NCBI GenBank assembly: GCA_965237415.1
Contig: CBDEFM010000002.1
Location: forward strand, 1,376,001-1,440,000
Length of the DNA stretch: 64,000 bases
Direction of reading: 5' to 3'
Source: Alphaproteobacteria bacterium
GTDB lineage: Bacteria > Pseudomonadota > Alphaproteobacteria > UBA828
In this document: piece by piece, positions 1 to 14,084 of the stretch
How the letters are laid out: every line of letters begins with the position of its first letter
Numbering within the stretch: position 1 is the first letter of the stretch
Position numbers and translations under genes: made by a program
The notes under the pieces: generated by a model
What the model was told of the DNA's origin: nothing
Databases searched by the model: none
The model's input: the letters and a program-made list of their open reading frames with translations, nothing else

Positions 1-1
1 C

Positions 2-646
2 ATCCGGGAGAAGGCGGGCACCGCGCCCCGCACCGTCATGGGCCTCCACCGGCGGTGCGATCTCTTCGACCGTCTGGTGCGCCACCCGCGCCTGGTCGAG
101 CCGGCGCAGCAGATCGCGGGCGACGACCTCTACATCCAGCAGGTCAAGGTCAACGTAAAAGCCGCGTTCGAGGGCGATGTCTGGCAGTGGCACTACGATT
201 TCGCGACCCATCACCGGGACGATGGCGTGCCGGCACCGCAGGCGCTCAATCTGCACATCCTGCTCGACGAGGTGAGCCACTATAACGGGCCGCTTTACTT
301 CATTCCCGGCTCCCACCGGCACGAGCCGCTGCCTACCTTCCACGACGTGACGAGCACGAGCTATCCGCTCTGGGTGGTGGATCGGGAAACGGTTACGGGC
401 CTCATCGCAGACGGTGGCATCACGCCTGCGCGCGGCCCGCCCGGCACGGCGCTCATATTCGGCGACCTGATGGTCCACGGCTCGCCCGGCAACATGTCGC
501 CCTGGGACCGCGCCATCTTCTCGCTCATCCTCAACCCGGTCGCCAACGCCCAGACCGCCTTCGCCCGGCCCGAGCACAAGCACCACACCGATTTTTCGCC
601 GGTGGTGCCGCTCGCCGACGATTGCCTGCTCGCGCCGGACGCATGA
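2..646 (+). CDS. Fe(II)/2-oxoglutarate dioxygenase, PhyH/EctD-like (proline/ectoine hydroxylase-like); 5' truncated by window edge
   Basis: WQWHYD (HxD) and distal MVHGS His of the facial triad; LYFIPGSH; frame open from position 2. Confidence 0.85.
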
Positions 647-653
647 CCGGCCC

Positions 654-1970
654 ATGAGCGATCCGCCGGCGCTCGAGCCGGGCTATTTCCTCGACAGCCT
701 GCGAACGGCCGACCCGGAGGTCCACGCGGCGCTCGCGGGCGAGCTCGAACGCCAGCAGAACGGGATCGAGCTGATCGCGTCGGAGAACCTGGTTAGCCAG
801 GCGAGCCTGGAGGCGCTGGGGTCCATCATCGTCAACAAGACCGTGGAGGGCCGGCCCGGCGGGCGCTACTACGGCGGCGCGGAGTTCGCCGACCGGATCG
901 AGACCCTCGCCATCGAGCGAGCCAAGACGCTCTTCGGCTGTGGCTTTGCCAATGTCCAACCCCATTCCGGCAGCCAGGCCAACCAGGCGGTCTTCCTCGC
1001 GTTGCTCAAGCCGGGCGACACGCTGCTCAGCATGGCGCTGGATGCCGGCGGCCATCTGAGCCACGGGGCGGCCCCGAATCTCACCGGCAAGTGGTTCAAC
1101 CCGGTTCGCTACGGCACCGATGCCTCGGGCTTCATCGACATGGATGAGGTCGAGCGTCTCGCGCACGAGCACCGGCCCAAGCTCATCATCTGCGGCGGCT
1201 CGGCCTACCCGCGCGCGATCGACTTCGCGGGCTTTCGGGCCATCGCCGATTCGGTGGATGCCATGCTGCTCGCCGACATGGCCCATTTCGCCGGGCTCGT
1301 GGCCGGCGGCGCGCACCCGAGCCCCCTCCCCCACGCCCACGTCACGACGGCAACCACCTACAAGAACCTGCGCGGCGGGCGCGGCGGGATCATACTCACC
1401 GACGATCCCACGCTCGCGCGCAAGCTCGACAGCGCGGTCTTCCCGGGCGTGCAAGGCAGCGTGATCCTCAACGCGGTCGCGGCGAAGGCGGTCTGCCTGG
1501 GCGAGGCGCTCAAGCCAGAATTCAAGACATACGCGGCGCGAGTGCTCGCCAATGCGAGAGCCCTCGCCGATACGCTGATGCAGCGCGGCATCGCCGTCGT
1601 CGCCGGCGGCACGGACACACCGCTGCTGGTGGCCGACCTGCGCCCCCTCGGGCTCACCGGCGCGGCGGCGTCCGACAGCCTGGAGGCCGCCGGCCTCACC
1701 TGCAACAAGAACGCGGTGCCGGGCGACACGCAGCCGCCCAAAGTGACGTCGGGGTTGCGCTTCGGCTCGGCAGCCGGAACCACACGGGGATTCGGCGAGG
1801 CCGAGTTCCGCCGCATCGGCGGCTGGATCGCCGACGTGCTGCACGCCATGGAAGCGTCTGGCGCGCGCGACGAGACCCTCGAACGGACCATCCGCACCGA
1901 GGTGCGGGCGCTGTGCCGCGCCTTCTCGATTTATCCCGAACTCACCACGGGCACGCCGAAGGGGCGTTAG
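654..1970 (+). CDS. glyA: Serine hydroxymethyltransferase-family PLP enzyme (divergent GlyA paralog)
   Basis: [39 protein letters not shown]; PLP-Lys motif is atypical (TTYKNLRG). Confidence 0.85.
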
Positions 1971-2006
1971 GTCAGTAACCGGCTGCCCTGGCGGTACCAA
2001 TCCGCC

Positions 2007-2272
2007 AGCCCGCAATTCTCACCAAGGTCATGGCCTGCGCGACGCTGTCCGGCCGAGAGAGCAGGAAAGGCGCGCAGCGCGATGTGGTGCATCGGGCAAG
2101 CGCCTAGACGCACTCTGTCGGCCGGACAGCGTCGCCCTTCGGGTCGCGCCCAGGCGTCCGCCCGCGGCGTCGCGGGCCTCAACCGTAGCCCCGCTACGCT
2201 TTTCGGCCCGCTCCTGGCGGATCGAACGCCTGGGCGCGACGCAGGCCGTGACCCTGGTGAGAATTGCGGGCT
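2007..2272. mobile_element. MITE-like structured repeat, copy 1 (266 bp)
   Basis: TIR AGCCCGCAATTCTCACCA...TGGTGAGAATTGCGGGCT; aligns along its length with the reverse complement of 11963-12230. Confidence 0.85.
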
Positions 2273-2310
2273 AGAGTGCGCGGCCATTTTCATCGACGCG
2301 GGAGCCGGCT

Positions 2311-3288
2311 GTGGACCTACCCCTCGAGCCGAGACTGAGCATCGGCTACCAGAATGTGCTGACGCCATCGGGATACGACGACACGGAGGGGTCGGCGGTA
2401 GGCGGCGACCTGCCCGAGACTGTCCGCCTGCTCGATGCATTGGGTTTCGATTCGATCTGGTCCGGCGATCACGTGGCCTTTGCCGGGCCGATCCTCGATC
2501 CGCTGATGCAGCTCGCGCAGGCAGCGGCGCTGAGCGACCGGCTCAAGATCGGCACGGCCGTCTACCTGCTGCCGCTCCGCCATCCCGCGCCAGTGGCGAA
2601 ACAGGTCGCGACCCTCGATACGATCTCGAACGGGCGCGTGATCTTCGGCGTCGGAGTCGGCGGCGAGTTCCCGATCGAATACGAGCTTTGCGGCGTGCCG
2701 GTGGAAGAACGCGGCGCCCGGCTCAGTGAGGGCATTCGCGTGCTGCGCGGCCTCTGGTCCGGCCGCCCGGTCGCCAACGATGGCCGCTTCTATCCATTCT
2801 CCGAGGTCGCGATTGAGCCGCCGCCCGCGCAACCGGGCGGCCCCCCGATCTGGTGCGGCGGCCGCGCCGACCCAGCGCTCCGCCGCGCAGGCCGGCTCGC
2901 CGACGGCTGGATGTCTTATGTCATCGATCCTGAGCGCTACCGCCGTTCGCTCGAGACCATCGCCGCGGCGGCAACCGCCGCCGATCGCAAGCTGGATCGC
3001 TTCGGCACATCGCATTTGCTGTTCGTGAGGCTCGACAAGGACCGCGACAGCGCCCTCGAGTTCGCGGCCAAGTTCCTGAGCGTCCGTTACGCGATGGATT
3101 TCAGCCGCGCCGCCGAGCGCTACTGCGCGCTCGGAGAGCCGGCGGCGGTGGCGGAGGCGATCCGGGCATTCCACACGGCCGGGATGCGCCATCTCGTGCT
3201 GAACATGCTTGCGCCGGAGAGCGAGAAGGCGGCGCATCTGCAACGCTTCGCGGACGACGTGATGCCGCTGCTCGCAGACCTGCGCTGA
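2311..3288 (+). CDS. LLM-class (luciferase-like) flavin/F420-dependent oxidoreductase
   Basis: GFDSIWSGDH, LRHPAPVAKQVATLD, GRVIFGVGVG, PPIWCGG, ADGW. Confidence 0.9.
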   Translation: MDLPLEPRLSIGYQNVLTPSGYDDTEGSAVGGDLPETVRLLDALGFDSIWSGDHVAFAGPILDPLMQLAQAAALSDRLKIGTAVYLLPLRHPAPVAKQVATLDTISNGRVIFGVGVGGEFPIEYELCGVPVEERGARLSEGIRVLRGLWSGRPVANDGRFYPFSEVAIEPPPAQPGGPPIWCGGRADPALRRAGRLADGWMSYVIDPERYRRSLETIAAAATAADRKLDRFGTSHLLFVRLDKDRDSALEFAAKFLSVRYAMDFSRAAERYCALGEPAAVAEAIRAFHTAGMRHLVLNMLAPESEKAAHLQRFADDVMPLLADLR

Positions 3289-3302
3289 GCCGGCGCCACG
3301 CC

Positions 3303-4499
3303 ATGACTGCCGCCTTCCTCCTCTACGTGAACCCGCGCCACGCGCCTGTGCCGGGGAGCGACGACGATGGCCACCCGGTGATCCTGCCGGAGCGCCGCGC
3401 CGCGGCCCGCTCCGCAATCACGGGCTTCGAGGGCTACCGGCCCACACCGTTGCATCGGCTGACGGGCCTCGCGGAGACGCTCGGCATCGCGGAACTGTGG
3501 CTCAAGGACGAGAGCGGGCGCTTCGGCCTCGGCAGCTTCAAGGCGCTGGGCGGTGCATACGCAGTCGTGCACTTGCTGCGCGAGCGAGTGGGAGATGACG
3601 TCTCCATCGCCGACGTCGCTGCAGGCCGCGCCGCGGCGCGCGTCAACGACATGACCGTCTGCTGCGCGACCGACGGCAACCACGGGCTCGCCGTGGCGTG
3701 GGGTGCGCGGCGCGCCGGTGCCAGGTGCAGGGTGTTCCTGCCGGGGCCGGTGAGCGAGGGCCGCGAGTGCGCCATCGCCGCCCAGGGCGCCGAGATCGTG
3801 CGCGTCTCAGGCAGCTATGACGAGGCGGTGCGCGCCTGCGCGGAGGAAGCGCACGCCAGGGGCTGGCTGCTGGTCTCCGACACGTCGCATGCCGGCGGCG
3901 ACGAGGCGCCGAGCCGGGTCATGCACGGCTACGCCATGCTGGTGGACGAGATCAGGGCGGCGCTGGCGGGGCCAACACCGACTCATCTCTTCGTCCAGGC
4001 AGGCGTCGGCGGGCTTGCCGCCGCGGCGATCGGCGCCTTCCGTCAGGACTGCGGCGACGACAGCCCGAAGGGCGTGGTGGTCGAGCCGACGAAGGCCGAC
4101 TGCCTCTATCAGAGCGCAGTCAACGGAGTGCCGAGCCCCGCCTCCGGCGATCTCGACACGGTGATGGCCTGCCTCGCCGCCGCCGAAGTCTCGCCGCTGG
4201 CCTGGCAGGTTCTGGATCGGGGCGCCTTCGCCTTCATGGCGCTCGACGATGAGGGCGCCGTCGATGCCATGCGCCGCGCCGCCACGCCGGCCGAGGGCGA
4301 CCCGCCGCTCGTGCTGGGCGAATCCGGCGCCGCCGCGCTTGGCGGGCTGATTGCCGTGGCAGGCGAGAGGGAGGCGCGGGAGGCGCTCGGGATGAACGAG
4401 GCATCGCGGGTGCTGGTGATCGGCAGCGAAGGCGCGACCGACCCCGACATCTACCGCCGGTTGGTCGGCCGCGACCCAGCCGCCGTCGCGGCCGGCTGA
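3303..4499 (+). CDS. dpaL: Diaminopropionate ammonia-lyase
   Basis: KDESGRFGLGSFKALGG, ATDGNHG, VSDTS, QAGVGG, GESGAA, EGATDP. Confidence 0.88.
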   Translation: MTAAFLLYVNPRHAPVPGSDDDGHPVILPERRAAARSAITGFEGYRPTPLHRLTGLAETLGIAELWLKDESGRFGLGSFKALGGAYAVVHLLRERVGDDVSIADVAAGRAAARVNDMTVCCATDGNHGLAVAWGARRAGARCRVFLPGPVSEGRECAIAAQGAEIVRVSGSYDEAVRACAEEAHARGWLLVSDTSHAGGDEAPSRVMHGYAMLVDEIRAALAGPTPTHLFVQAGVGGLAAAAIGAFRQDCGDDSPKGVVVEPTKADCLYQSAVNGVPSPASGDLDTVMACLAAAEVSPLAWQVLDRGAFAFMALDDEGAVDAMRRAATPAEGDPPLVLGESGAAALGGLIAVAGEREAREALGMNEASRVLVIGSEGATDPDIYRRLVGRDPAAVAAG

Positions 4500-4528
4500 G
4501 CGCCCGAAACACCGGGGCCGCGCCGACG

Positions 4529-4819
4529 ATGAGCGACAGCCTTGACGACCTCGACATCAGGCGCCGGCGGCTGCGCTATCGTTCGGCACGCACCGGCACC
4601 AAGGAGACCGACCTCCTGGTCGGCGAAGTGATTGCCCGTCTCGGCCACGAGCTCCCGCCGGAGGAAGTGGCGCAGGCGGAACGGCTGCTGACCGCGAACG
4701 ACGTCGACATCACGAACTGGATCAGCGGGCGGACGCCGGTGCCGGCGGAACACGACACGCCCTTTCTCGCACGCCTGAGGCGCGAGGCCTTGAACCGGCA
4801 TCGCGACAATCGCTGTTGA
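4529..4819 (+). CDS. sdhE: Succinate dehydrogenase assembly factor SdhE/Sdh5
   Basis: RRRRLRYRSARTGTKETDL (variant of RGxxExD); directly upstream of mfd, as usual in Alphaproteobacteria. Confidence 0.8.
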   Translation: MSDSLDDLDIRRRRLRYRSARTGTKETDLLVGEVIARLGHELPPEEVAQAERLLTANDVDITNWISGRTPVPAEHDTPFLARLRREALNRHRDNRC

Positions 4820-7800
4820 CCATGCTCGTCTCCAACCGCTGCCTAGGTGCCTTAGCCGAGCCGGGGCAGACGACCCTCGGTGGGGTTCCCGAAGGCTTCG
4901 CCGCGGCGGTTCTGCTCGGGCTCGCGGAGACGCAAGCAGCGCCGGTGCTCTACATCGCCCGCGACGACGCCAGGCTCGCGCGGCTCTCCGCGATGCTGGC
5001 CTTCTTCGATCCCGACTGCGCTCCGGTCACCATCCCGGCCTGGGATTGCCTGCCGTACGACCGGGTCTCGCCGCGCGCCGATATCGCGAGCCGGCGGCTC
5101 GCCGGTCTCGTCCGGCTGCTGGATGACGGCGCGACACGGCCCAAGATCGTGCTCACCACCGTCAACGCTGCCCTCCAACGGGTGCCGCCACGCACGATGC
5201 TGGCCGACGCGACCCTGCCGCTCGAAGCCGGCGCCTCGCTCGATACCGAGACCCTGCTCGGCTATCTGGAGCGCAACGGGTTCGTCCGCACCGGCACGGT
5301 GATGGAGGCCGGCGACTACGCCGTGCGCGGCGGCATCGTGGATATCTTCCCCCCCAACGCCGAGCGCCCGGTGCGGCTCGATTTCTTTGGCGACGTCATC
5401 GAGTCCATGCGCTGGTTCGATCCGCTGACGCAGCGGCGCGACGAGCCTGCAGGCCCCCTCGCCCTCGCGCCGGTCAGCGAGGTGCTGCTGACGCCGCAGT
5501 CGATCGCGCGCTTCCGCGCCGCGTACCGCCGCGCGTTCGGCGCCGTGACCCGGGATGACCCGCTCTACGAGTCGGTCTCCGCCGCGCGCCGCTATCCCGG
5601 TATCGAGCACTGGCTGCCGCTGTTCCACGACGGGCTGGAGACGCTCTTCGACTACGTGCCGGAGGGCCCGGTCCTGCTCGACCATCGCGGGGTGGAGGCG
5701 CGCGACGACCGCTTCGAGACGATTGCGGATTTCTTCGACGCGCGCGCCAACCCGCCGACCTCGACGATCGCGGAGGTGCCCTATCACCCGGTCGCGCCCG
5801 CGGCGCTCTTTCTCGACGCGGACGAATGGGGGCGGCTGCTTGCGGACCGCCCGGTCGTGCACTGCTCGCCGTTCGTGGAGACAGAAGGCGGAGCAGACGC
5901 CGGCGCCCGCGACGGGCGGGACTTCGTTGCCGAGCGCACGCAGCGCAGCGGGTCGCTGTTCGAGACCGTGAGCGATCACATCGACCGGCTGCAGGAGAGC
6001 GGCCTCAGGATCCTGATCGCGAGCGGCGGCGCCGGCAGCCGGGACCGTATGGTCCGTCTGCTGCGCGAGCACGGCGTGCACGGGATCGAGCCGGTGGCCG
6101 ACTGGCGGGGGGCCTCTGCACTGCCGCCGGCTATCGCAGCAGCCGCGGTGCTGCAGCTGGAGCGGGGATTCGTCGCGGCGGGGCTCGCCGTGATCGCCGA
6201 GCAGGACATCCTCGGTGCGCGCGCGAGCCGGCCGGAGCGACGGCGGCGGAAGCCTGCCGAGGAATTTCTGGTCGACGCGGCGGCGCTGGCGGATGGCGAC
6301 CTGGTCGTGCACGTCGACCACGGCATCGGCCGCTACGACGGCCTGGTCACCCTGGAAGTCGATCACGCGCCGCACGATTGCCTGCGCATCCTCTATGACG
6401 GCGACGACCGGCTGTTCCTGCCCGTCGAAAACATCGAGCTCTTGTCCCGCTACGGCTCGGCCGACCAGCCAGTCTCGCTGGACCGGCTCGGCGGCGCCGC
6501 CTGGCAGGCGCGTAAGGCAAAGCTCAAGCAGCGCATCCGCGACATGGCGATCCAGCTCATCGGGCTTGCGGCCGAGCGCGCGACGCGGCCCGCGCCGCAG
6601 CTGGCAGCGCCGGGCGCTCTCTACGACGCCTTCTGCGCGGGCTTTCCCTATGTCGAGACCGAGGATCAGGCACGCGCCATCGACGAGACGATCGGCGACC
6701 TCGATGCCGGGCGAGCGATGGACCGGTTGGTGTGCGGCGACGTCGGATTCGGCAAGACGGAGGTGGCGCTGCGCGCAGCCTTCCACGCGGTGAACGCCGG
6801 CAAGCAGGTCGCGGTGCTGACACCCACCACTCTGCTCAGCCGGCAACATCTCCAGACTTTCAAAGAGCGTTTCGCCCGGTTGCCGGTGGAGATCGCCCAG
6901 CTCTCGCGCCTGGTGCCGGCCAGGGAGCAAGCGGCGATCAAGCGCGGCATCGCAGGCGGCGCGATCGACATCGTCATCGGCACCCATGCGCTGCTCGGCC
7001 CCTCCATCGCCTTCAACGACCTCGGCCTCGTCGTCGTAGACGAGGAGCAGCATTTTGGCGTCGCCCACAAGGAGCGCCTGAAGCGCCTCAGGGCCGAGGC
7101 TCATGTGCTGACACTCACCGCAACGCCGATCCCACGCACCTTGCAAATGGCGCTGAGCGGCGTGCGCGATATGAGCGTCATCGCGACCCCGCCGGTGGAC
7201 CGGCTCGCCGTGCGCACCTTCATCCTGCCCTACGACCCGATGGTCGTGCGCGAAGCGCTGATGCGCGAGCATTTGCGGGGCGGGCAGATCTTCTATGTGT
7301 GCCCGCGCATCGCCGACCTCAACGAGGCGGCCGAGCGCGTGCGCCAGCTTGTGCCCGAGGTGAAGGTCGCCATCGCCCACGGCCGGCTCGCGGCGCGCAC
7401 CCTCGATTCGATCATGGGCGACTTCTACGACGGCAAGTTCGACGTTCTGGTCTCCACCGCGATCATCGAATCGGGGCTCGACCTGCAGCGGGTCAACACC
7501 ATGATCGTGCATCGCGCCGATCGCTTCGGGCTGGCCCAGCTCTATCAGCTACGCGGGCGGATCGGTCGGGCCAAGCTGCGCGGCTACGCCTATCTCACGC
7601 TCCCGCCCGGGCTCAGGCTTACCGACACCGCGCACAAGCGGCTCCAGGTCATTCACCGGCTCGACGGACTCGGGGCCGGCTTCAGCCTGGCGAGCCACGA
7701 CCTCGACATCAGGGGCGCGGGCAACCTGCTCGGGCCCGAGCAATCGGGCCACATCCGCGAGATCGGGATCGAGCTCTACCAGCACATGCTGGAGGAAGCC

Positions 7801-8310
7801 GTGGCCACGGCGCGGGCCGCCGCCGGTGGCGAGGCGCCGCCTGCCGAGCGCTGGTCGCCCACCATCAGCCTCGGCACCTCGGTGCTGATCCCCGAGAGCT
7901 ACGTGCGGGACCTCGACGTGCGGCTCACGCTCTATCGCCGGGTCGCGACCCTGGAAGACCAGGCCGGGATCGACGACTTCGTCGACGAGCTGACCGACCG
8001 ATTCGGCCCGCCGCCGGCGTCCGTTCACCACCTGCTGGAGATCATGGCGATCAAGCAGCTCTGCCGCCAAAGCGGCATCGAGCGTGTCGAGGCCGGGCCC
8101 AAGGGCGCGGTGCTGAGCTTCCGGGACGGCGGTGCGGTCGACCCTGCGGCCCTGGTCCGCTACGTGTCGGCGCCCGAGAACGAGGTGCGCCTCCGGCCGG
8201 ACAGCCGCCTCATCGTCACGCGCCGCTGGCCCGATACGGAGGCGCGGCTGGAGGGCGTCCAACGCATCCTGCGGGACCTCTCCGCGCTCGCCGGGGATTC
8301 CGTGCCGTAG
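4816..8310 (+). CDS. mfd: Transcription-repair coupling factor
   Basis: CarD-like [47 protein letters not shown]; TTG start overlaps sdhE stop. Confidence 0.97.
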
Positions 8311-8343
8311 GCCGCCGGCCCGCCATCCAAGACACCGGTTCCC

Positions 8344-8372
8344 TTGCCGGCAGTCTATACATATGCTATACG
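8344..8372 (+). promoter_or_regulatory. Putative sigma70 promoter/operator of the TA module
   Basis: TTGCCG-17nt-TATACG with extended TG; CTATAC direct repeat 11 bp apart. Confidence 0.5.
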
Positions 8373-8420
8373 CCCCTCTCTGACGGTCCTGAGTCCGCAA
8401 CCCGCGTGAAGGAAGCCGCA

Positions 8421-8678
8421 ATGGCCCAGGTCAACTTCCGGATATCCGAAGAGCGCCTCGCCTTCATCGACCGTGCGGCGGCGATCCGGGGCGTCACGCG
8501 GACCGAGTTCGTGCTGCGGTCGAGCGAGGCGGCGGCAATCGAGACCCTGAACGAGCGTCCGATCATCGCCCTCGACGACGAGGCCTGGGAGGCGTTCACC
8601 GCCGCGTTGGACGCGCCGGTGGATCCCGATCCCGCCGTGAAGGAGCGTTACGCGCGCCGGCCGCAGTGGGACCGGTAG
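8421..8678 (+). CDS. DUF1778 RHH antitoxin (TacA-like)
   Basis: MAQVNFRISEERLAFIDRAAAIRGVTRTEFV...LDDEAWEAFTAALDAP; directly upstream of a GNAT toxin. Confidence 0.88.
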   Translation: MAQVNFRISEERLAFIDRAAAIRGVTRTEFVLRSSEAAAIETLNERPIIALDDEAWEAFTAALDAPVDPDPAVKERYARRPQWDR

Positions 8679-9169
8679 CGGCGCCGGAGCCGCTCGGCGC
8701 CCAGCACGACGTCTCGCAATTCTCATCGGGCGTGCCTGCCCTCGACGCCTGGCTGCAGGGCAAGGCGCGCCTCAACGAAGCCAAGGGCGGCGCACGCACC
8801 TATGTCGCCTGCGACGGTGAACGCGTTGCCGGCTTCTACAGCCTGGCCGCCAGCGCCATCGAGAAGCGGCGGCTCTCATCCCGGGCCGGCCGCAACATGC
8901 CGGAGCCGGTCCCGGTCATCCTGTTGGGACAGCTTGCCGTGGACAGCGCCTACCAGGGTCGGCGGCTCGGCTCGGACCTGCTGGTCGACGCCGCGCGCCG
9001 CGCCCGGGCTGCGGCAGAGGTCATCGGCGCCCGCGCCATCGTGGTGCAGGCCATCGACGAGCGGGCCAAGGCATTTTATGGACGATTCGGTTTCCGTCCG
9101 TTCTCGGATCGCGAGCCCCTGATGCTGGTCCTGCGCATGTCCGAACTGGACGCGTTGCTGGAAGCGTGA
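8666..9169 (+). CDS. GNAT acetyltransferase toxin (TacT/AtaT-like)
   Basis: FSSGVPALDAWL, LLGQLAVDSAYQGRRLGSDLL, AKAFYGRFGF. Confidence 0.9.
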   Translation: MGPVAAPEPLGAQHDVSQFSSGVPALDAWLQGKARLNEAKGGARTYVACDGERVAGFYSLAASAIEKRRLSSRAGRNMPEPVPVILLGQLAVDSAYQGRRLGSDLLVDAARRARAAAEVIGARAIVVQAIDERAKAFYGRFGFRPFSDREPLMLVLRMSELDALLEA

Positions 9170-9229
9170 GCTGCTCAGCTCGAGGGCGTGCGGCTCGTGC
9201 TGTGGGACCTCTCAAGCCCTACCACTCAC

Positions 9230-9316
9230 CGTCATGCCCGGACTCGTTCCGGGCATCCATTTGGGGCCAGGTACAGCGAAGAGCCGTGGATGGCCGGGAC
9301 AAGCCCGGCCATGACG
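9230..9316. repeat. CGTC-type REP dimer (alphaproteobacterial palindromic repeat), copy A
   Basis: CGTCATGCCCGGACTCGTTCCGGGCATCCA...TGGATGGCCGGGACAAGCCCGGCCATGACG; second copy at 23447-23536. Confidence 0.85.
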
Positions 9317-9362
9317 AAAGGGGGATGGAGCGCCCAATAATGCGAACCCTCCGATCAGGACA

Positions 9363-9695
9363 CTACGCGCCAGCCAGCTCGTTGACCTTGGCCGCCATGA
9401 TAAAATCGTTCTCGTGCAGGCCCTTGATCTTGTGGGTGTAGAAGAGGACCGTGCAGTGGCCCCAGCCGAAAGTGATGTCGGGGTGATGGCCCTCCTCCTC
9501 CGCGAGGTCGCCGACCTTGTTCACCAGCGCCATGGACTCCGCGAAGTCGCCGAGAGAGAAGGTACGGCGGATCTTGGTGGCGTCGTCGATCAGCTCCCAT
9601 CCGGGTGTCTGATCCAGAAACGCCCGTGCTTCGGCCTCTTCGAGCGGCGGAATGCCGCCCCGGCAGGGCACGCAGGTCTTGCTCGTCAGGCTCAT
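9363..9695 (-). CDS. phhB: Pterin-4a-carbinolamine dehydratase
   Basis: CVPCRGGIPPL, EEGHHPDI, THKIKGLHENDFIMAAK. Confidence 0.92.
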   Translation of the reverse strand: MSLTSKTCVPCRGGIPPLEEAEARAFLDQTPGWELIDDATKIRRTFSLGDFAESMALVNKVGDLAEEEGHHPDITFGWGHCTVLFYTHKIKGLHENDFIMAAKVNELAGA

Positions 9696-9821
9696 ATCGT
9701 CCTCCGGCGGCGCGGGTCCCTCGCCGGGCCCCTCGGCCTTTGCTGTTGCGGTGGCGGGAGAGGGCTGGAAAGATATTCCCCATACTACGCCAACAGCCCG
9801 GCTGACGAAGGAACTTCGTGA

Positions 9822-11048
9822 ATGGCGCCGATGGACGCGGCGGTCGACGTCCGGCCTGAGCCGTATTTCCCCACCGCCGCTGAGGGGACGACGCCCCGGC
9901 GCGTCACGATCCTGGGCTCCACCGGCTCGATCGGCTGCAACACCATCGACCTGATCGCCCGCCACCCGGGCGCGTTCGAGGTCGAGGCGCTGACCGCCCA
10001 GCGCAGCGTCGAGCGGCTGGCCGAACAGGCCCGTGCGGTCGGCGCCAGGCAGGCCGTCATCGGCGATCCCGCGCTCTACGGCGCCCTCAAGGAGGCGCTC
10101 GCCGGGACCGAGACGGCGGCAGCCGCCGGCGCGCAAGCCCTGGTCGAAGCCGCCGCCGCGCCCGCCGATTTCGTGATGGCCGGCATCGTCGGCGCTGCCG
10201 GGCTCCGGCCTACGCTCGCAGCAGCCGCGCAGGGCACCATCATCGGTCTCGCCAACAAGGAGTGTCTGGTCTGCGCCGGCACGCTCATGCTGGCCGAGGT
10301 CGAGCGCGGCGGGGCGACGCTGCTTCCGGTCGATTCGGAGCACAACGCCATCTTCCAGGTGTTCGACTTCGAGCGCAGCGAGGGCGTCGAGAAGATCGTG
10401 CTCACCGCCTCGGGCGGGCCGTTCCGCGAGGCGTCGATGGAAACCATGGCCCAGGCCACGCCGGAACAGGCCGTCGCCCACCCCAACTGGGACATGGGCG
10501 CCAAGATTTCGGTGGATTCGGCAACCATGATGAACAAGGGCCTCGAGACGATCGAGGCCTTTTACCTGTTCCCGGTGGACGCGGAGCAGATCGAGGTGCT
10601 GGTGCACCCGCAATCGGTGATCCACAGCATGGTCGCCTATGCGGACGGCTCGGTGCTCGCGCAGCTCGGCACGCCCGACATGCGCACGCCGATCGCCTAT
10701 ACCCTCGCCTGGCCGGCCCGCATGGCGGCGCCCTCGCCCCGGCTCGATCTTGCGGCCCTCGGCCGCCTCACCTTCGAGCCGCCGGACCCGGTGCGCTTCC
10801 CCGCCCTTCGCCTCGCGCGCGAGGCGCTCACCCAGGGCGGCAGCGCGCCGATCGTGTTGAACGCCGCCAACGAGATCGCAGTCAGCAGCTTCCTCGAGCG
10901 CCGCATCGGCTTCCTGGAGATCGCGCGAACGGTCGAGCGCTGTCTGGAGCAGACCAACCACTGCGCCGTCACCGGGCTCGACGACGTGTACGAGATCGAC
11001 GGTGCCGCCAGGGAGCGTGCCGCGCGCTTGCTCGATGGCGCCGGCTGA
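9822..11048 (+). CDS. dxr: 1-deoxy-D-xylulose-5-phosphate reductoisomerase
   Basis: LGSTGSIG, LANKE, LPVDSEHNAIFQ, TASGGPFR, HPNWDMGAKISVDSATMMNKGLE. Confidence 0.96.
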   Translation: MAPMDAAVDVRPEPYFPTAAEGTTPRRVTILGSTGSIGCNTIDLIARHPGAFEVEALTAQRSVERLAEQARAVGARQAVIGDPALYGALKEALAGTETAAAAGAQALVEAAAAPADFVMAGIVGAAGLRPTLAAAAQGTIIGLANKECLVCAGTLMLAEVERGGATLLPVDSEHNAIFQVFDFERSEGVEKIVLTASGGPFREASMETMAQATPEQAVAHPNWDMGAKISVDSATMMNKGLETIEAFYLFPVDAEQIEVLVHPQSVIHSMVAYADGSVLAQLGTPDMRTPIAYTLAWPARMAAPSPRLDLAALGRLTFEPPDPVRFPALRLAREALTQGGSAPIVLNAANEIAVSSFLERRIGFLEIARTVERCLEQTNHCAVTGLDDVYEIDGAARERAARLLDGAG

Positions 11049-11066
11049 CGGCGCGGGGCCAAGCGG

Positions 11067-11951
11067 ATGACGACGACTGCATCTGCGGCTGTGGGGGCAC
11101 CGGGCGGCCCTGCACCGGCGGCGCGCGAGGAGAACATCGGCGCGCTGATCCGCGCGAACAGCGAGAACTTTCCCGTCGGTTCCTTCCTGATCCCGCCCGA
11201 TTGCCGGCCCCACGTGCACGCGTTCTACCTGTTCGCGCGAAAGGCCGACGACATCGCCGATTCGCCGACCATCCCGGCGGCCGAGAAAGTGGCCCGGCTT
11301 CAGGCCGCGAGCGACGCCCTCGGCAAGGACGAAGCGGCGCTGCCCGATTGGGCGGTGCCCTACCACCGGAGCCTGATCGAGACCGGCTGCGCGGCAGAGA
11401 ACGGGCGCGACCTGCTCTCCGCCTTCATCCAGGACGCGACCAAGCTGCGCTACGCCGACTGGGACGATCTGATGGACTACTGCCAGCGCTCGGCGGCCTC
11501 GGTGGGCCGGGTGATGATGGACATCCACGGGGAGAGCCGGCACGCCGACATCGAGGGCTCGGACGCTCTCTGCAATGCCCTGCAGGTGCTCAACCACCTG
11601 CAGGACTGCCGCGAGGATTACCTTGCGCTGGATCGCGTCTACCTGCCGGAACCGTGGCTCAAGGAGGCCGGCGGCGGCGTCGAGATGCTCGCCGAACGGC
11701 AGGCAGCACCGGCTGTGCGCCGCACCATCGACCGGTGCCTGGAGCACACGGCGGACCTGCTCAGGCGCGCCGAGGCGATGCCGCGCACGGTCCGCCGGCG
11801 GCGCTTTCGCTGGGAGTGCGCGGTGATCGTCAAGCTGGCCTGGGCGCTCCATCGCAGGCTCGCCAATGGCGACCCCCTCGCCGGCCGGATCAGGGTGCCG
11901 ACGCCGAGCCGCGTGGGCCTCGCGCTGAGCGGCATCGTTCAGGCATGGTGA
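11067..11951 (+). CDS. hpnC: Squalene synthase HpnC (hydroxysqualene synthase)
   Basis: ENFPVGSFL, FARKADDIAD, AFIQD, YCQRSAASVGR, LQVLNHLQD, RVYLP. Confidence 0.88.
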   Translation: MTTTASAAVGAPGGPAPAAREENIGALIRANSENFPVGSFLIPPDCRPHVHAFYLFARKADDIADSPTIPAAEKVARLQAASDALGKDEAALPDWAVPYHRSLIETGCAAENGRDLLSAFIQDATKLRYADWDDLMDYCQRSAASVGRVMMDIHGESRHADIEGSDALCNALQVLNHLQDCREDYLALDRVYLPEPWLKEAGGGVEMLAERQAAPAVRRTIDRCLEHTADLLRRAEAMPRTVRRRRFRWECAVIVKLAWALHRRLANGDPLAGRIRVPTPSRVGLALSGIVQAW

Positions 11952-11962
11952 GCACGGCGGTG

Positions 11963-12230
11963 AGCCCGCATTTCTCACCATGGTCGTGGCCTGCGTCGCG
12001 CCCAGGCGTTCGATCCGCCAGGAGTGGGCCGAAAAGCGTATCGGGGAATACGGTTGAGGCCCGCGACGCCGCGGGCGGGCGCCTGGGCGCGACCCGAAGG
12101 GCGGCGCCTTCAGGGCGACAGGGTGCGTCAAGACGCTTGCCCGATGTCCCCGCATCGCGCTGCGCGCCTTTCCTGCCCTGTCGCCCTGAAGGCGCCGCGC
12201 AGACCATGACCCTGGTGAGAAATGCGGGCT
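11963..12230. mobile_element. MITE-like structured repeat, copy 2 (268 bp, inverted relative to copy 1), inserted in the 5' end of hpnD
   Basis: TIR AGCCCGCATTTCTCACCA...TGGTGAGAAATGCGGGCT; removing it restores the frame (M)VSTAV-SLPIPEAP. Confidence 0.85.
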
Positions 12231-13091
12231 AGCCTGCCGATCCCGGAGGCCCCCGATCCGAAGCGCTATGTCGCCGAGGTGACGCGAGCGTCGAGGAGCT
12301 CGTTCTTCCTGCCGATGCTGCTGCTGCCGCGCGAGAAGCGCGAGGCGATGCTGGCGCTCTACGCCTTTTGCCGGGAGACCGACGACGTCGCCGACGAGAT
12401 CGAGGACCCGGCGCAGTCGCGCGCCTTGATCGAGGCCTGGCGCGGCGAGGTCCGGGCGCTCTACCAGGGTGCACCCCGCCACCCGGTGACCCGAGCCCTC
12501 GCCGCCCCGGTCGAACGCTTCGGGCTCGCCGAGCGGCACTTCATGGAGATACTTGAGGGCTTCGAGATGGATGGCGGCGGTGCCATGTTGCGGCCGACCC
12601 TCGCCGAGCTCGAGCGCTACTGCCACTGCGTCGCCGGTTGCGTCGGCCTGCTCTCGGTCGAGATCTTCGGGTACCGCGCGCGAACCATCCCCACCTTCGC
12701 GCGCCACCTCGGCCAGGCGTTTCAACTCACCAACATCCTCCGCGACGTGGCGGAGGACGCCAAGCGCGGCCGCATCTACCTGCCGCAGGAGCTGCTGGAG
12801 CGCCACGGCCTCGCGGACATCGGACCGGAGGCAATCGGGCGCACGCCCGGGGTCGAGAAGGTCTGCGGCGCCCTCGGCGGGATGGCGCGGCGGCGCTTCG
12901 GCGCCGCGAGCGAGGCGCTGCCACGCTCGGAGCGGCGTTCCATGCGGCCCGCCATCCTCATGCGCAGCGTCTACGAAGCCTATCTCGACCGCATCGAGCG
13001 GGCGGGCTTTCCGGTCGCAGGCCGGCGCATCAGGTTCACCGCGACGCAGAAGTTGCGCCTGGTCATGGGCGGGCTGCTGCGGACGATCTGA
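12222..13091 (+). CDS. hpnD: Presqualene diphosphate synthase HpnD (current ATG lies inside the element's right TIR)
   Basis: SSFF, ALYAFCRETDDVAD, GFEMD, YCHCVAGCVG, FQLTNILRDVAEDAKRGRIYLP. Confidence 0.88.
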   Translation: MRASLPIPEAPDPKRYVAEVTRASRSSFFLPMLLLPREKREAMLALYAFCRETDDVADEIEDPAQSRALIEAWRGEVRALYQGAPRHPVTRALAAPVERFGLAERHFMEILEGFEMDGGGAMLRPTLAELERYCHCVAGCVGLLSVEIFGYRARTIPTFARHLGQAFQLTNILRDVAEDAKRGRIYLPQELLERHGLADIGPEAIGRTPGVEKVCGALGGMARRRFGAASEALPRSERRSMRPAILMRSVYEAYLDRIERAGFPVAGRRIRFTATQKLRLVMGGLLRTI

Positions 13092-13133
13092 GCGAAGCGG
13101 CTTCCCCGGCCTCGCCTCGGCCGGCGCAGGGTG

Positions 13134-13164
13134 CTTGCGGGCGGCAAGGGCACGACCATATAAC
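13134..13164 (+). promoter_or_regulatory. Putative promoter for the lgt operon (CTTG...CCATATAAC, sigma32/sigma70-like)
   Basis: CTTGCGG-18nt-TATAAC upstream of lgt. Confidence 0.35.
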
Positions 13165-13268
13165 CAGCCCCGCCGCGCGGAACTTTATGGAGCCGTAGAT
13201 GGCGCGCTTACTGAGTGCGGGCCGCGCCGCACCCTTCACGACTATCTGAGCAGGGACGACCCCTATCG

Positions 13269-14084
13269 ATGACCTTCGCCCTCGCCTTCCCCGCCATCGA
13301 CCCGGTGGCCGTCGAGATCGGCCCCGTCGCCATACGCTGGTACGCGCTCGCCTATGTGGTCGGCCTGCTGCTCGGCTGGCAGTACGTTCGGTATCTCGCC
13401 GAGAAACGCATCGACGGACTGACCAAGCGCCACGCGGACGACCTGGTGGTGTGGTGCACCCTCGGCATCGTCGTGGGCGGCAGGCTCGGCTACGTGCTGT
13501 TCTATCAACCTGGCTATTACTTCGCCAATCCGGGAGAAATTTTGGTGGTCTGGCAGGGGGGCATGTCCTTTCACGGCGGGCTCCTTGGGGTGCTGGTTGT
13601 CGTGGTCCTCTACGCCCGCGTTATGAAAATCAGCCTGCTCTCCGTCGCCGATGCGATCGGCGCGCAGGTGCCGATCGGCCTCTTTCTGGGCCGTATCGCA
13701 AATTTCATCAACGGCGAGCTGTACGGCCGGGCCAGCGATGTTGCCTGGGCGATGGTGTTCCCGCACGGCGGGCCTGAGCCGCGCCACCCGAGCCAGCTCT
13801 ACGAGGCGGTCCTGGAAGGCCTCGTCCTGTTCGCAATCCTGGCGGTCGCTGTGCATGTGCGGCGGCTGGTCCGGCGGCCGGGCACCGTCGCCGGGCTCTT
13901 CTTCGTCGGTTACGGCGTCGCCCGGATCATCGGCGAGGTATTCCGCGAGCCCGATGCGTTCCTCGGCTTCATCGTGCCCGGCCTCACCATGGGGCAGGTG
14001 CTCTCGCTCCCGATGATCGTGATCGGGCTCTTCCTCATCCTTCGCATCCCGCCGGTGCCGCGGGCGGGCGGACAAACCGGGTGA
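13269..14084 (+). CDS. lgt: Prolipoprotein diacylglyceryl transferase
   Basis: IRWYALAY, GGRLGYVLFY, GGMSFHGG, GRIANFINGELYGR, HPSQLYE, LTMGQVLS. Confidence 0.96.
   Translation: MTFALAFPAIDPVAVEIGPVAIRWYALAYVVGLLLGWQYVRYLAEKRIDGLTKRHADDLVVWCTLGIVVGGRLGYVLFYQPGYYFANPGEILVVWQGGMSFHGGLLGVLVVVVLYARVMKISLLSVADAIGAQVPIGLFLGRIANFINGELYGRASDVAWAMVFPHGGPEPRHPSQLYEAVLEGLVLFAILAVAVHVRRLVRRPGTVAGLFFVGYGVARIIGEVFREPDAFLGFIVPGLTMGQVLSLPMIVIGLFLILRIPPVPRAGGQTG

Follow-up and report, generated by a model that had tools for sequence, protein, structure and literature searches.

The 64,000-nucleotide window analysed here (assembly GCA_965237415.1, contig CBDEFM010000002.1, positions 1,376,001 to 1,440,000; an Alphaproteobacteria bacterium of the UBA828 lineage) contains two copies of one element of approximately 266 bp, which is very probably a MITE (miniature inverted-repeat transposable element) using the ends of IS1380-family insertion sequences. 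Its interior of approximately 230 nt consists of an outer stem, a pair of stem-closed domains and a minute hairpin at their junction, and the fold is conserved through compensatory substitutions well beyond chance. The best overall explanation, to which we give a probability of approximately 0.5, is a MITE with IS1380-type ends whose fold aids its mobilisation. The element apparently represents an undescribed, widespread MITE family of uncultured Alphaproteobacteria. The genome that holds the window (G000; 4.75 Mb, 66.7% G+C) consists of two contigs, C1 and C2; G004 denotes its sister species, and L numbers denote loci.

Direct reading bore out the two oppositely oriented copies that an initial annotation, made from the letters of the window, had placed at 2007-2272 (copy 1, + strand) and 11963-12230 (copy 2, - strand). 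The copies were 89% alike over the full query in an end-to-end alignment. The 23-nt arms of the domain 1 stem were found where they had been located, at 2039-2061/2113-2135 in copy 1 and 12101-12123/12176-12198 in copy 2, and six positions of this stem indeed differed on both arms with pairing retained; a seventh difference was one-sided and mended a G-G mismatch of copy 1. The other covariations described between the copies were likewise seen: GCAATT/AATTGC versus GCATTT/AAATGC in the terminal inverted repeats (TIRs), where an A-T pair is swapped for T-A; CGTAG/CTACG in one copy and CGTAT/ATACG in the other in a small hairpin; and a CGATG/CATCG hairpin with constant arms and a variable loop. 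The closing stem of domain 2, GTCGCGCCCAGGCG/CGCCTGGGCGCGAC, was also confirmed. The parts of the two copies, in window coordinates, are as follows.

2006..2273, + strand: copy 1 together with the dinucleotides on either side; element proper 2008-2271.
2006-2007 and 2272-2273, + strand: flanking duplicates of copy 1, the left decayed to CA, the right TA.
2008..2024, + strand: left TIR of copy 1, GCCCGCAATTCTCACCA, pairing with 2255-2271; the same ends are present in the IS1380-family elements L201, L193 and L272.
2255..2271, + strand: right TIR of copy 1, TGGTGAGAATTGCGGGC.
2025..2038, + strand: 5' arm of the outer-stem extension, pairing with 2241-2254; its sequence varies across the family and its pairing is kept.
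2241..2254, + strand: 3' arm of the outer-stem extension.
2039..2135, + strand: domain 1, with the 23-bp stem 2039-2061/2113-2135, inner helices and the hairpin CGATG/CATCG at 2080-2084/2090-2094.
2136..2142, + strand: junction mini-hairpin CC-TTC-GG linking the two domains (helix 7), 98.8% paired and never covarying.
2143..2240, + strand: domain 2, with the closing stem 2143-2156/2227-2240.
2177..2206, + strand: invariant hairpin module CCTCAACCGTAG-loop-CTACGCTTTTCGG, with a 5-bp hairpin enclosed by an internal loop (UCAAC / CUUUUC).
11962..12231, - strand: copy 2 together with the dinucleotides on either side; element proper 11964-12229.
12230-12231 and 11962-11963: flanking duplicates of copy 2, read on the - strand, the former TA, the latter decayed to TC.
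12213..12229, - strand: left TIR of copy 2 in element orientation; the + strand reads ...GGTGAGAAATGCGGGC.
11964..11980, - strand: right TIR of copy 2 in element orientation.

The fold had an energy of -205.7 kcal/mol on the + strand (z -15.8) and -212.6 kcal/mol on the - strand (z -17.2), and none of 200 shuffles was as good. For the covariation analysis, 42 copies that were pairwise less than 88% identical were aligned with MAFFT, which is blind to structure; the 107 pairs of the RNAalifold consensus were scored, and 500 shuffles as well as slid partners served as controls. The covariation proposed from two copies was significant in this larger alignment. Pairs that changed on both sides numbered 65 of 107, compared with 35.5 ± 3.1 after shuffling; 93.9% of the cells were paired, versus 84.1% for shuffled and 35-41.5% for slid partners; and 373 cells had changed on both sides, versus 90.9 for shuffled and 48-85 for slid partners. 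No measure was matched by any of the 500 shuffles. Kinship among the copies inflates the shuffle tests; the slid controls retain this kinship, yet gave far lower values. Changes on both sides were spread over 19 of 32 pairs of the outer stem (helix 1; 92.7% of its cells paired), 17 of 23 pairs of the domain 1 stem (helix 2) and 9 of 14 pairs of the domain 2 closing stem (helix 8).

Conservation was not confined to the stems. Between the consensus of the main group and that of seven divergent copies, 29% of stem, 19% of unpaired and 15% of TIR columns differed, and unpaired motifs were conserved as well as the stems or better. The internal loops of domain 1 carry near-invariant AGGA and GACG, and the most striking invariant is the hairpin module of domain 2, whose top pair (columns 378/386 of the 42-copy alignment) is G-C in 18 copies and U-A in 14. 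All 28 occurrences of the module in the genome lay within the 266-bp family. Together with the same ends, it was also found in an otherwise different, less G+C-rich MITE of a Terriglobia metagenome-assembled genome (MAG) and a Ca. Versatilivorator MAG, and this MITE folds too (z -7.8). Inspection by eye of a possible loop-loop pairing between CAGGA of domain 1 and UCCUG of domain 2 revealed no consistent covariation at its single variable pair.

The strand on which the fold functions was favoured neither by energy nor by wobble pairs. Of 112 copies, 62 folded better as the + strand and 50 as the - strand, with a mean difference of -1.1 ± 8.1 kcal/mol; G-U cells numbered 748 and A-C cells 282, and after removal of six fixed or half-fixed wobble positions the counts were approximately 289 and 270. 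We also counted, in 102 main-group copies, the changes found in one copy each; such a singleton is unique within a sample of approximately five copies per genome. There were 0.44 singletons per stem column versus 0.38 per unpaired column, and 47 of 78 one-sided singletons broke a pair.

Copies of the element end in GCCCGCATTTCTCACCA and its complement, flanked by YTA...TAR. Two genomes of the genus contain 1.65-kb IS1380-family elements that end in CCCGCATTTCTCACG...CGTGAGAAATGCGGG (L201:1343-2990 in G006, 1648 bp; L193 in G014), whose transposases matched NF033539 with 401 and 398 bits, respectively (cut-off 180). A 2.6-kb IS1380-family element in a Ca. Versatilivorator MAG (L272) has the same ends, with CTAG on both sides. 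Transposase genes enclosed by the ends of the repeat were thus found in G006, G014 and this MAG, all of the IS1380 family. Since the ends are identical to those of these insertion sequences, we consider it very likely that the element is a MITE with IS1380-family ends. The similarity stops there: an alignment of the insertion-sequence right end with the right half of the MITE revealed no homology beyond the TIR, and two of the three autonomous elements contained only a 9-nt string, CCTCAACCG, 115-125 nt from the right end.

The genome itself contains three IS1380-family genes, all with other ends, and the matching partner is absent from it; one of the three (L177) has a related end, CCCGCTTTATTC. 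Eight pairs of TIRs in this genome stand 0.45-5 kb from each other, and no plausible autonomous element lies within any of them. The statement of the initial annotation that the window holds no transposase was upheld for the two families checked, as none of 11 DDE_3 matches and nine IS1380-model matches (three above the cut-off) lay within C2:1376001-1440000. An HUH enzyme, which had been listed among candidate movers, received no support, with no match to the Y1/HUH transposase model PF01797 in the genome (completeness 96%). The literature searched on IS1380 yielded no IS1380-derived MITE of a similar kind.

Two other partners were considered and rejected. An IS630 partner was first suggested by the TA flanks; the resident 379-aa IS630-family element ends in GTCACCTGGCAC, and the TIR flanks none of seven DDE_3 loci. 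An IS1595 transposase gene beside a solo TIR at C2:2418366 belongs to a separate element with its own inverted repeats, inserted in another repeat family that shares the TIR.

A search of the genome and its relatives for all copies revealed a dispersed, mobile family, as had been suspected. The genome gave 65 matches, of which 22 were uninterrupted full-length copies of 264-350 bp, two were copies interrupted by another small element, and the rest were partial or consisted of a TIR only; the TIR itself, with up to 3 mismatches, occurred 154 times. Many copies were present in 18 of 20 other genomes of the genus, and two complete genomes among these 20 had none. Other genera of the family and class gave just two weak matches. 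A 24-base pattern from domain 2 was found in at least 109 stretches when one genome each for 185,579 species was searched. Most of the matches listed came from MAGs titled Alphaproteobacteria or Rhodospirillales bacterium, and the other carriers among them were Hyphomicrobiaceae, Kiloniellaceae, Pelagibius, Defluviicoccus and Parvularculaceae MAGs. A profile applied to the retrieved loci detected 100 full-length copies, including 90 distinct ones; nine were strongly divergent and had the same architecture. The element has no coding capacity: it has no gene of its own, and the length differences between the 264-350-bp copies are indels that are not multiples of three. Plasmids of PLSDB (blastn) contained no match to the element, and a full-text literature search with three of its strings returned none.

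Insertion occurs at YTAR sites, with TA as the part consistently found on both sides. We compared the 4-mers on both sides of the 99 copies whose tips are exact: 25 pairs were identical and palindromic, and therefore uninformative on duplication length; 3 were identical and non-palindromic; 19 differed with complementary inner bases; 3 differed otherwise; and 49 were decayed. The empty copy 1 site of relatives holds one YTAG. The insertion sequences were flanked by TTAG/TTAG (L201), CTAG/CTAG (L272) and CTAA/CTAG (L193).

Comparison with G004, whose flanks are approximately 96% alike, indicated that the element has moved since the two closest species split, only 8 of 30 loci of G000 being shared. 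Copy 1 is flanked by the genes for a serine hydroxymethyltransferase and a luciferase-like monooxygenase. Only G000 and G004 have the element at this site; in seven other genomes of the genus in which the junction was read, the two flanks are joined and the element is missing, most of these empty sites reading ...ATCCG(T/C)TAGAGTGCGC. The copy 2 site is empty in 15 genomes of the genus, and one genome (G004) retains a remnant. These empty sites speak against the alternative that relatives lost, by exact deletion, a sequence already present in the ancestor. Five orthologous copies of G000 and G004 differed by 3/266, 2/267, 2/292, 8 substitutions plus a 27-nt indel (approximately 2.5%) and 25/268, respectively, with flanks differing by approximately 4%; summed over these loci, 40 positions of 1415 nt were substituted and one 27-nt indel was present (range 0.7%-9.3%). 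At the locus with 25 differences in 268 positions (L007 in G000, L059 in G004), where the flanks differ by 4.1%, replacement or conversion by another subfamily seems to have affected the copy of one species.

All 22 full-length copies of the genome lie between called open reading frames (ORFs), and four of them adjoin a stop codon to which the TA contributes. The contexts in other genomes were tandem in 41 cases, convergent in 21 and divergent in 6. Relative to tandem neighbours, the element was opposite in 10 cases and in the same orientation in 2 in this genome, versus 24 and 17 elsewhere, a weak bias among relatives that are not independent. A scan of window positions 1800-2500 found no promoter- or terminator-like site. 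The search of Rfam that had been recommended gave no family: Rfam 15 had no match at E up to 1 in window 1-14000, which includes both copies.

Contigs from four RNA libraries of three studies, which are strandless, contained pieces of the element joined to many different flanks, and one (contig X15 record 2, 1974-2131) spans the left junction of copy 1. These contigs are compatible with co-transcription; they are not proof of transcription, because DNA carry-over is possible. In window 2192-2265, the summed contig depth of runs X15-X18 was several-fold above that of domain 1 in all four libraries; these depths sum all copies and other elements sharing that part and are no measure of expression, and uncovered stretches in the window flanks are equally uninformative on it.

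Copy 2 lies between two paralogous genes of the squalene/phytoene-synthase family. In 15 genomes of the genus the site is empty, and the second gene has a start that overlaps the stop of its predecessor (gcATGGTGAgc...). In G000 copy 2 sits seven codons into the second gene, and the frame from an ATG of the element is open (window 11949-12231).

12222..13091, + strand: squalene/phytoene-synthase-family gene, its frame opening at the ATG in the copy 2 TIR (PF00494, E 5e-75).

In G004 (L251) the element is gone save for its last approximately 20 nt, and the gene still starts at the element ATG; the loss looks like a deletion between TGGTGAG of the native junction and the same 7-nt string in the right end. 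Judging from these arrangements, the end GGTGAGAAATG works as a donated start and probably also provides a ribosome-binding site. With a naive first-start caller, 11 of 26 ORFs facing outward beside copies started at a TIR ATG, which is not clearly above the expected one-third. As the element lands on stop codons and in gene starts and can supply a start itself (12222), gene callers will misplace the starts of adjacent genes.

Several further repeats were observed within or beside copies of the family. A mini-insert of approximately 27 nt, TCGTGCGCTCCGCGCGCGTCCCGCGCG, is nested in either orientation at three different places within MITE copies, for example at L023:1689-1715 and 1789-1815 (G000 C2:1201851-1201877 and 1201951-1201977) and also in L016-L019 and L022. 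With up to 4 mismatches allowed, the genome holds 15 matches to it; four lie outside recognisable MITE pieces, and two more adjoin MITE right-end fragments. One mini-insert present in G000 is missing from the orthologous G004 copy, the difference being a clean 27-nt indel. Possible readings of the insert are a tiny mobile hairpin and a templated insertion. Four divergent copies from Hyphomicrobiaceae MAGs (L101, L164, L166 and L173) carry other hairpin inserts of approximately 29 nt (e.g. CACGCCGAAGGCGTG plus a tail) in several loops, paralleling the mini-insert of the main group.

A separate 133-bp MITE, many of whose copies are identical, is present at G000 C2:2072361-2072493 and at approximately 45 further sites, and shares its ends, TA|GTCACCTG..., with the resident 379-aa IS630-family element; one copy abuts a copy of the 266-bp element, and two interrupt 266-bp copies on C1 (C1:409235-410423). 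Another repeat family has the same 17-nt end as the 266-bp element and then differs (...GTTCGCGGTCCGATTCCGCGTCCCACC..., with GGGATTAAGTGGGAT repeats); it occurs at G000 C2:330743-331150, C1:95389, C2:3245351, C2:2418366 and approximately 50 further sites, and one of its copies is split by a 1.8-kb element with an IS1595-like transposase gene. The IS1380-family element L177 of this genome has a left end that resembles this repeat family. An IS1380-family gene with other ends, at G000 C2:2315041-2317261 (L176), is flanked by near-identical inverted copies of one sequence of more than 300 nt.

For the conservation of the fold, a role in mobilisation is the likeliest reason, and we hold it tentatively, at somewhat less than even odds. 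Constraint would act on element lineages that are still transposing and not on resident copies, as singleton changes strike stems and loops alike, which suggests that resident copies decay; pairing and loop motifs would be filtered in the lineages that yield new copies. By folding on itself, either into a cruciform or as a single strand of either polarity, the interior would bring the two short ends close to each other. It would also offer the transposase, or a protein of the host, one conserved hairpin, so that a transposase made elsewhere could mobilise the element efficiently. Since the same module accompanies the same ends in an unlike MITE of other phyla, it appears to be tied to the ends and therefore to a co-travelling transposase clade, and for this reason we lean to a role in trans-mobilisation. 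As a by-product, an inserted copy would be transcribed as a closed hairpin in either orientation, entered at a junction that often reads TAG and left through an end that in approximately half of the copies provides an ATG together with a Shine-Dalgarno-like GGTGA; the cell would thereby survive insertions at gene ends and within operons. A bolder form of this proposal is rather doubtful: that the fold and its invariant module are a cis recognition structure, single-stranded or cruciform, needed by an IS1380-type DDE transposase to mobilise short non-autonomous elements in trans, or, instead of this or in addition to it, that the fold is an RNA device setting the upstream stop beside the downstream start.

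Several observations weigh against a fold that serves mobilisation by an IS1380 transposase. The autonomous elements L201, L193 and L272 have neither the fold nor the hairpin module, so the transposase does not need the fold on its own element. We infer movement of the MITE by such a transposase from the shared ends. The flanks fit a TA duplication followed by a terminal G..C of the element (19 cases) better than a 4-bp duplication (3 cases), and IS1380-family elements are reported to duplicate 4-5 bp. Orthologous copies diverge too unevenly to support constraint on resident copies. Compensatory double changes confined to one copy were seen eight times among the 102 main-group copies versus 0.14 expected, and could reflect correction of one arm by the other. 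Finally, the end carries the ATG in only approximately half of diverse copies (C-G at columns 15/460 in 19 of 42), which makes the donated start an opportunistic subfamily feature and not a design of the whole family.

Selection at the RNA level is possible, if on the unlikely side. Mobilisation would then need the ends alone, and the closed hairpin, co-transcribed with its neighbours, would act as a processing site, stabiliser, insulator or stop-start spacer that limits the harm of insertion or serves the host. The position of copies at gene ends and operon junctions agrees with this, as does a fold equally good on both strands, which insertion in either orientation would require. Contigs from RNA libraries join the element to many flanks, one of them across the left junction of copy 1, but may stem from DNA. 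The accessible part of the literature describes bcr1 in like terms (PMC3184786) and states stable stem-loops in MITE transcripts as a general feature (PMC10969869). However, the stems of resident copies are not depleted of singletons (0.44 versus 0.38 per column), and the 31 of 78 one-sided changes that keep pairing are approximately the number expected from transitions alone. The copies are not long-lived, as most insertions are confined to one species; the orientation bias is weak (10/2 here, 24/17 elsewhere); and motifs invariant across phyla are more easily tied to a travelling transposase than to host RNA factors.

A purely mutational origin of the covariation, in which one arm templates the other through template switching or repair of hairpin heteroduplexes and changes are erased or copied, is improbable. 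It would account for the excess of singleton double changes, which include transversion pairs such as C-G to G-C, and for the clustering, by eye, of 13 of approximately 28 differences between copy 2 and copy 1 in the 46 nt of one stem; some of these doubles may nevertheless be shared with unsampled copies, as the sample holds approximately five copies per genome. Such a process does not explain unpaired motifs conserved as well as the stems or better, it left 47 singleton changes uncorrected, and lasting asymmetries persist, with U-G occupying two positions of the outer stem (in 95 and 78 copies out of 112) and C-A one position (in 31 of 112). Least probable is a free-standing non-coding RNA (ncRNA) gene, such as a regulatory RNA, a ribozyme or a guide for a mobile-element enzyme, between borrowed transposon ends. 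Covarying helices with invariant internal loops are the usual signature of a functional RNA, and the hairpin module is conserved across phyla; against these stand the lack of any Rfam match even at E up to 1 and of promoter- or terminator-like sites, both orientations relative to neighbouring genes, no strand preference in energy or wobble pairs, and dozens of copies that decay freely. The initial annotation had suggested a structured mobile ncRNA family. Its dispersed, mobile nature and its covarying fold stood, and Rfam 15 gave no match; a free-standing RNA gene did not stand, because the element shows no strand preference, no promoter- or terminator-like site, and, with the fixed wobble pairs left aside, sporadic G-U and A-C mismatches in about equal numbers. 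The accompanying argument, that an ordinary MITE needs only its ends and conserved folding therefore implies selection, holds in that the fold is kept beyond chance; the element is nevertheless a MITE of ordinary type with a partner family, and the premise is too strong, as bcr1 of the Bacillus cereus group illustrates.

These results tie a MITE to the IS1380 family. Why MITEs retain hairpins has been asked since they were first described, and the hundreds of copies, 65 covarying pairs and cross-phylum loop motifs of the present element constitute a natural data set on this question. If the fold is required for mobilisation, a structural requirement would be added to a cut-and-paste transposase family related to piggyBac. 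If the bolder form of the mobilisation proposal is true, a structure-dependent step would exist in a family held to recognise nothing but double-stranded ends, and the hairpin module would have travelled with these ends between phyla; if the RNA device is real, insertions inside operons would stay translationally silent.

The element resembles IS1380-family insertion sequences in its terminal 15-17 nt, which are identical to those of the 1.65-kb NF033539 elements, in ends that start CC(C) and in its TA-centred YTAR target; unlike them, it has no transposase gene, an unrelated interior and flanks that fit a TA duplication better than one of 4-5 bp. For IS1247 of this family, the accessible part of the source gives 1672 bp, inverted repeats of 16/13 and a direct repeat of 5 bp (PMC3281130 Table 2). 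As far as the accessible texts go, IS1380 transposases are used as the prokaryotic outgroup of piggyBac (PMC10813416), which targets TTAA (PMC7351741). The likeness of the element to eukaryotic piggyBac transposons lies in target and ends, namely a TA-centred tetranucleotide (TTAA versus YTAR) and ends beginning CCC. REPINs and REP sequences moved by RAYT, and IS200/IS605-type elements, which transpose as folded single strands, use a Y1 (HUH) transposase, have neither TIRs nor duplications, and conserve hairpin structure rather than sequence. The same logic is proposed for the interior of the present element, which has TIRs and flanking duplications. RUP of Streptococcus pneumoniae, an IS630-derived MITE, and the Correia and ERIC repeats are known for TA insertion sites, hairpin potential and positions at gene ends. 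The element shares the TA site, the long hairpin and the gene-end position with these repeats; unlike them, its ends are of the IS1380 type and not those of the IS630 family of its own genome. MITEs folding into long hairpins are common, according to the accessible text of PMC10969869. A close parallel is bcr1 of the Bacillus cereus group, described in the accessible part of PMC3184786 as a transcribed mobile repeat with compensatory changes. Compared by description, bcr1 and the Group A repeats are also small mobile repeats with target duplications, a non-conserved distribution and a cruciform-like fold kept by compensatory changes; bcr1 differs in its size of approximately 155 bp, its 5-bp duplications, its phylum and its sequence, and the accessible description reports no IS1380-type ends. 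The present element exceeds bcr1 in size and further differs in its two domains and in loop motifs that are shared between phyla, whereas transcription has been described for bcr1. A structured mobile repeat of this type thus has a precedent in bcr1, as far as that description goes, and the present one carries IS1380-type ends.

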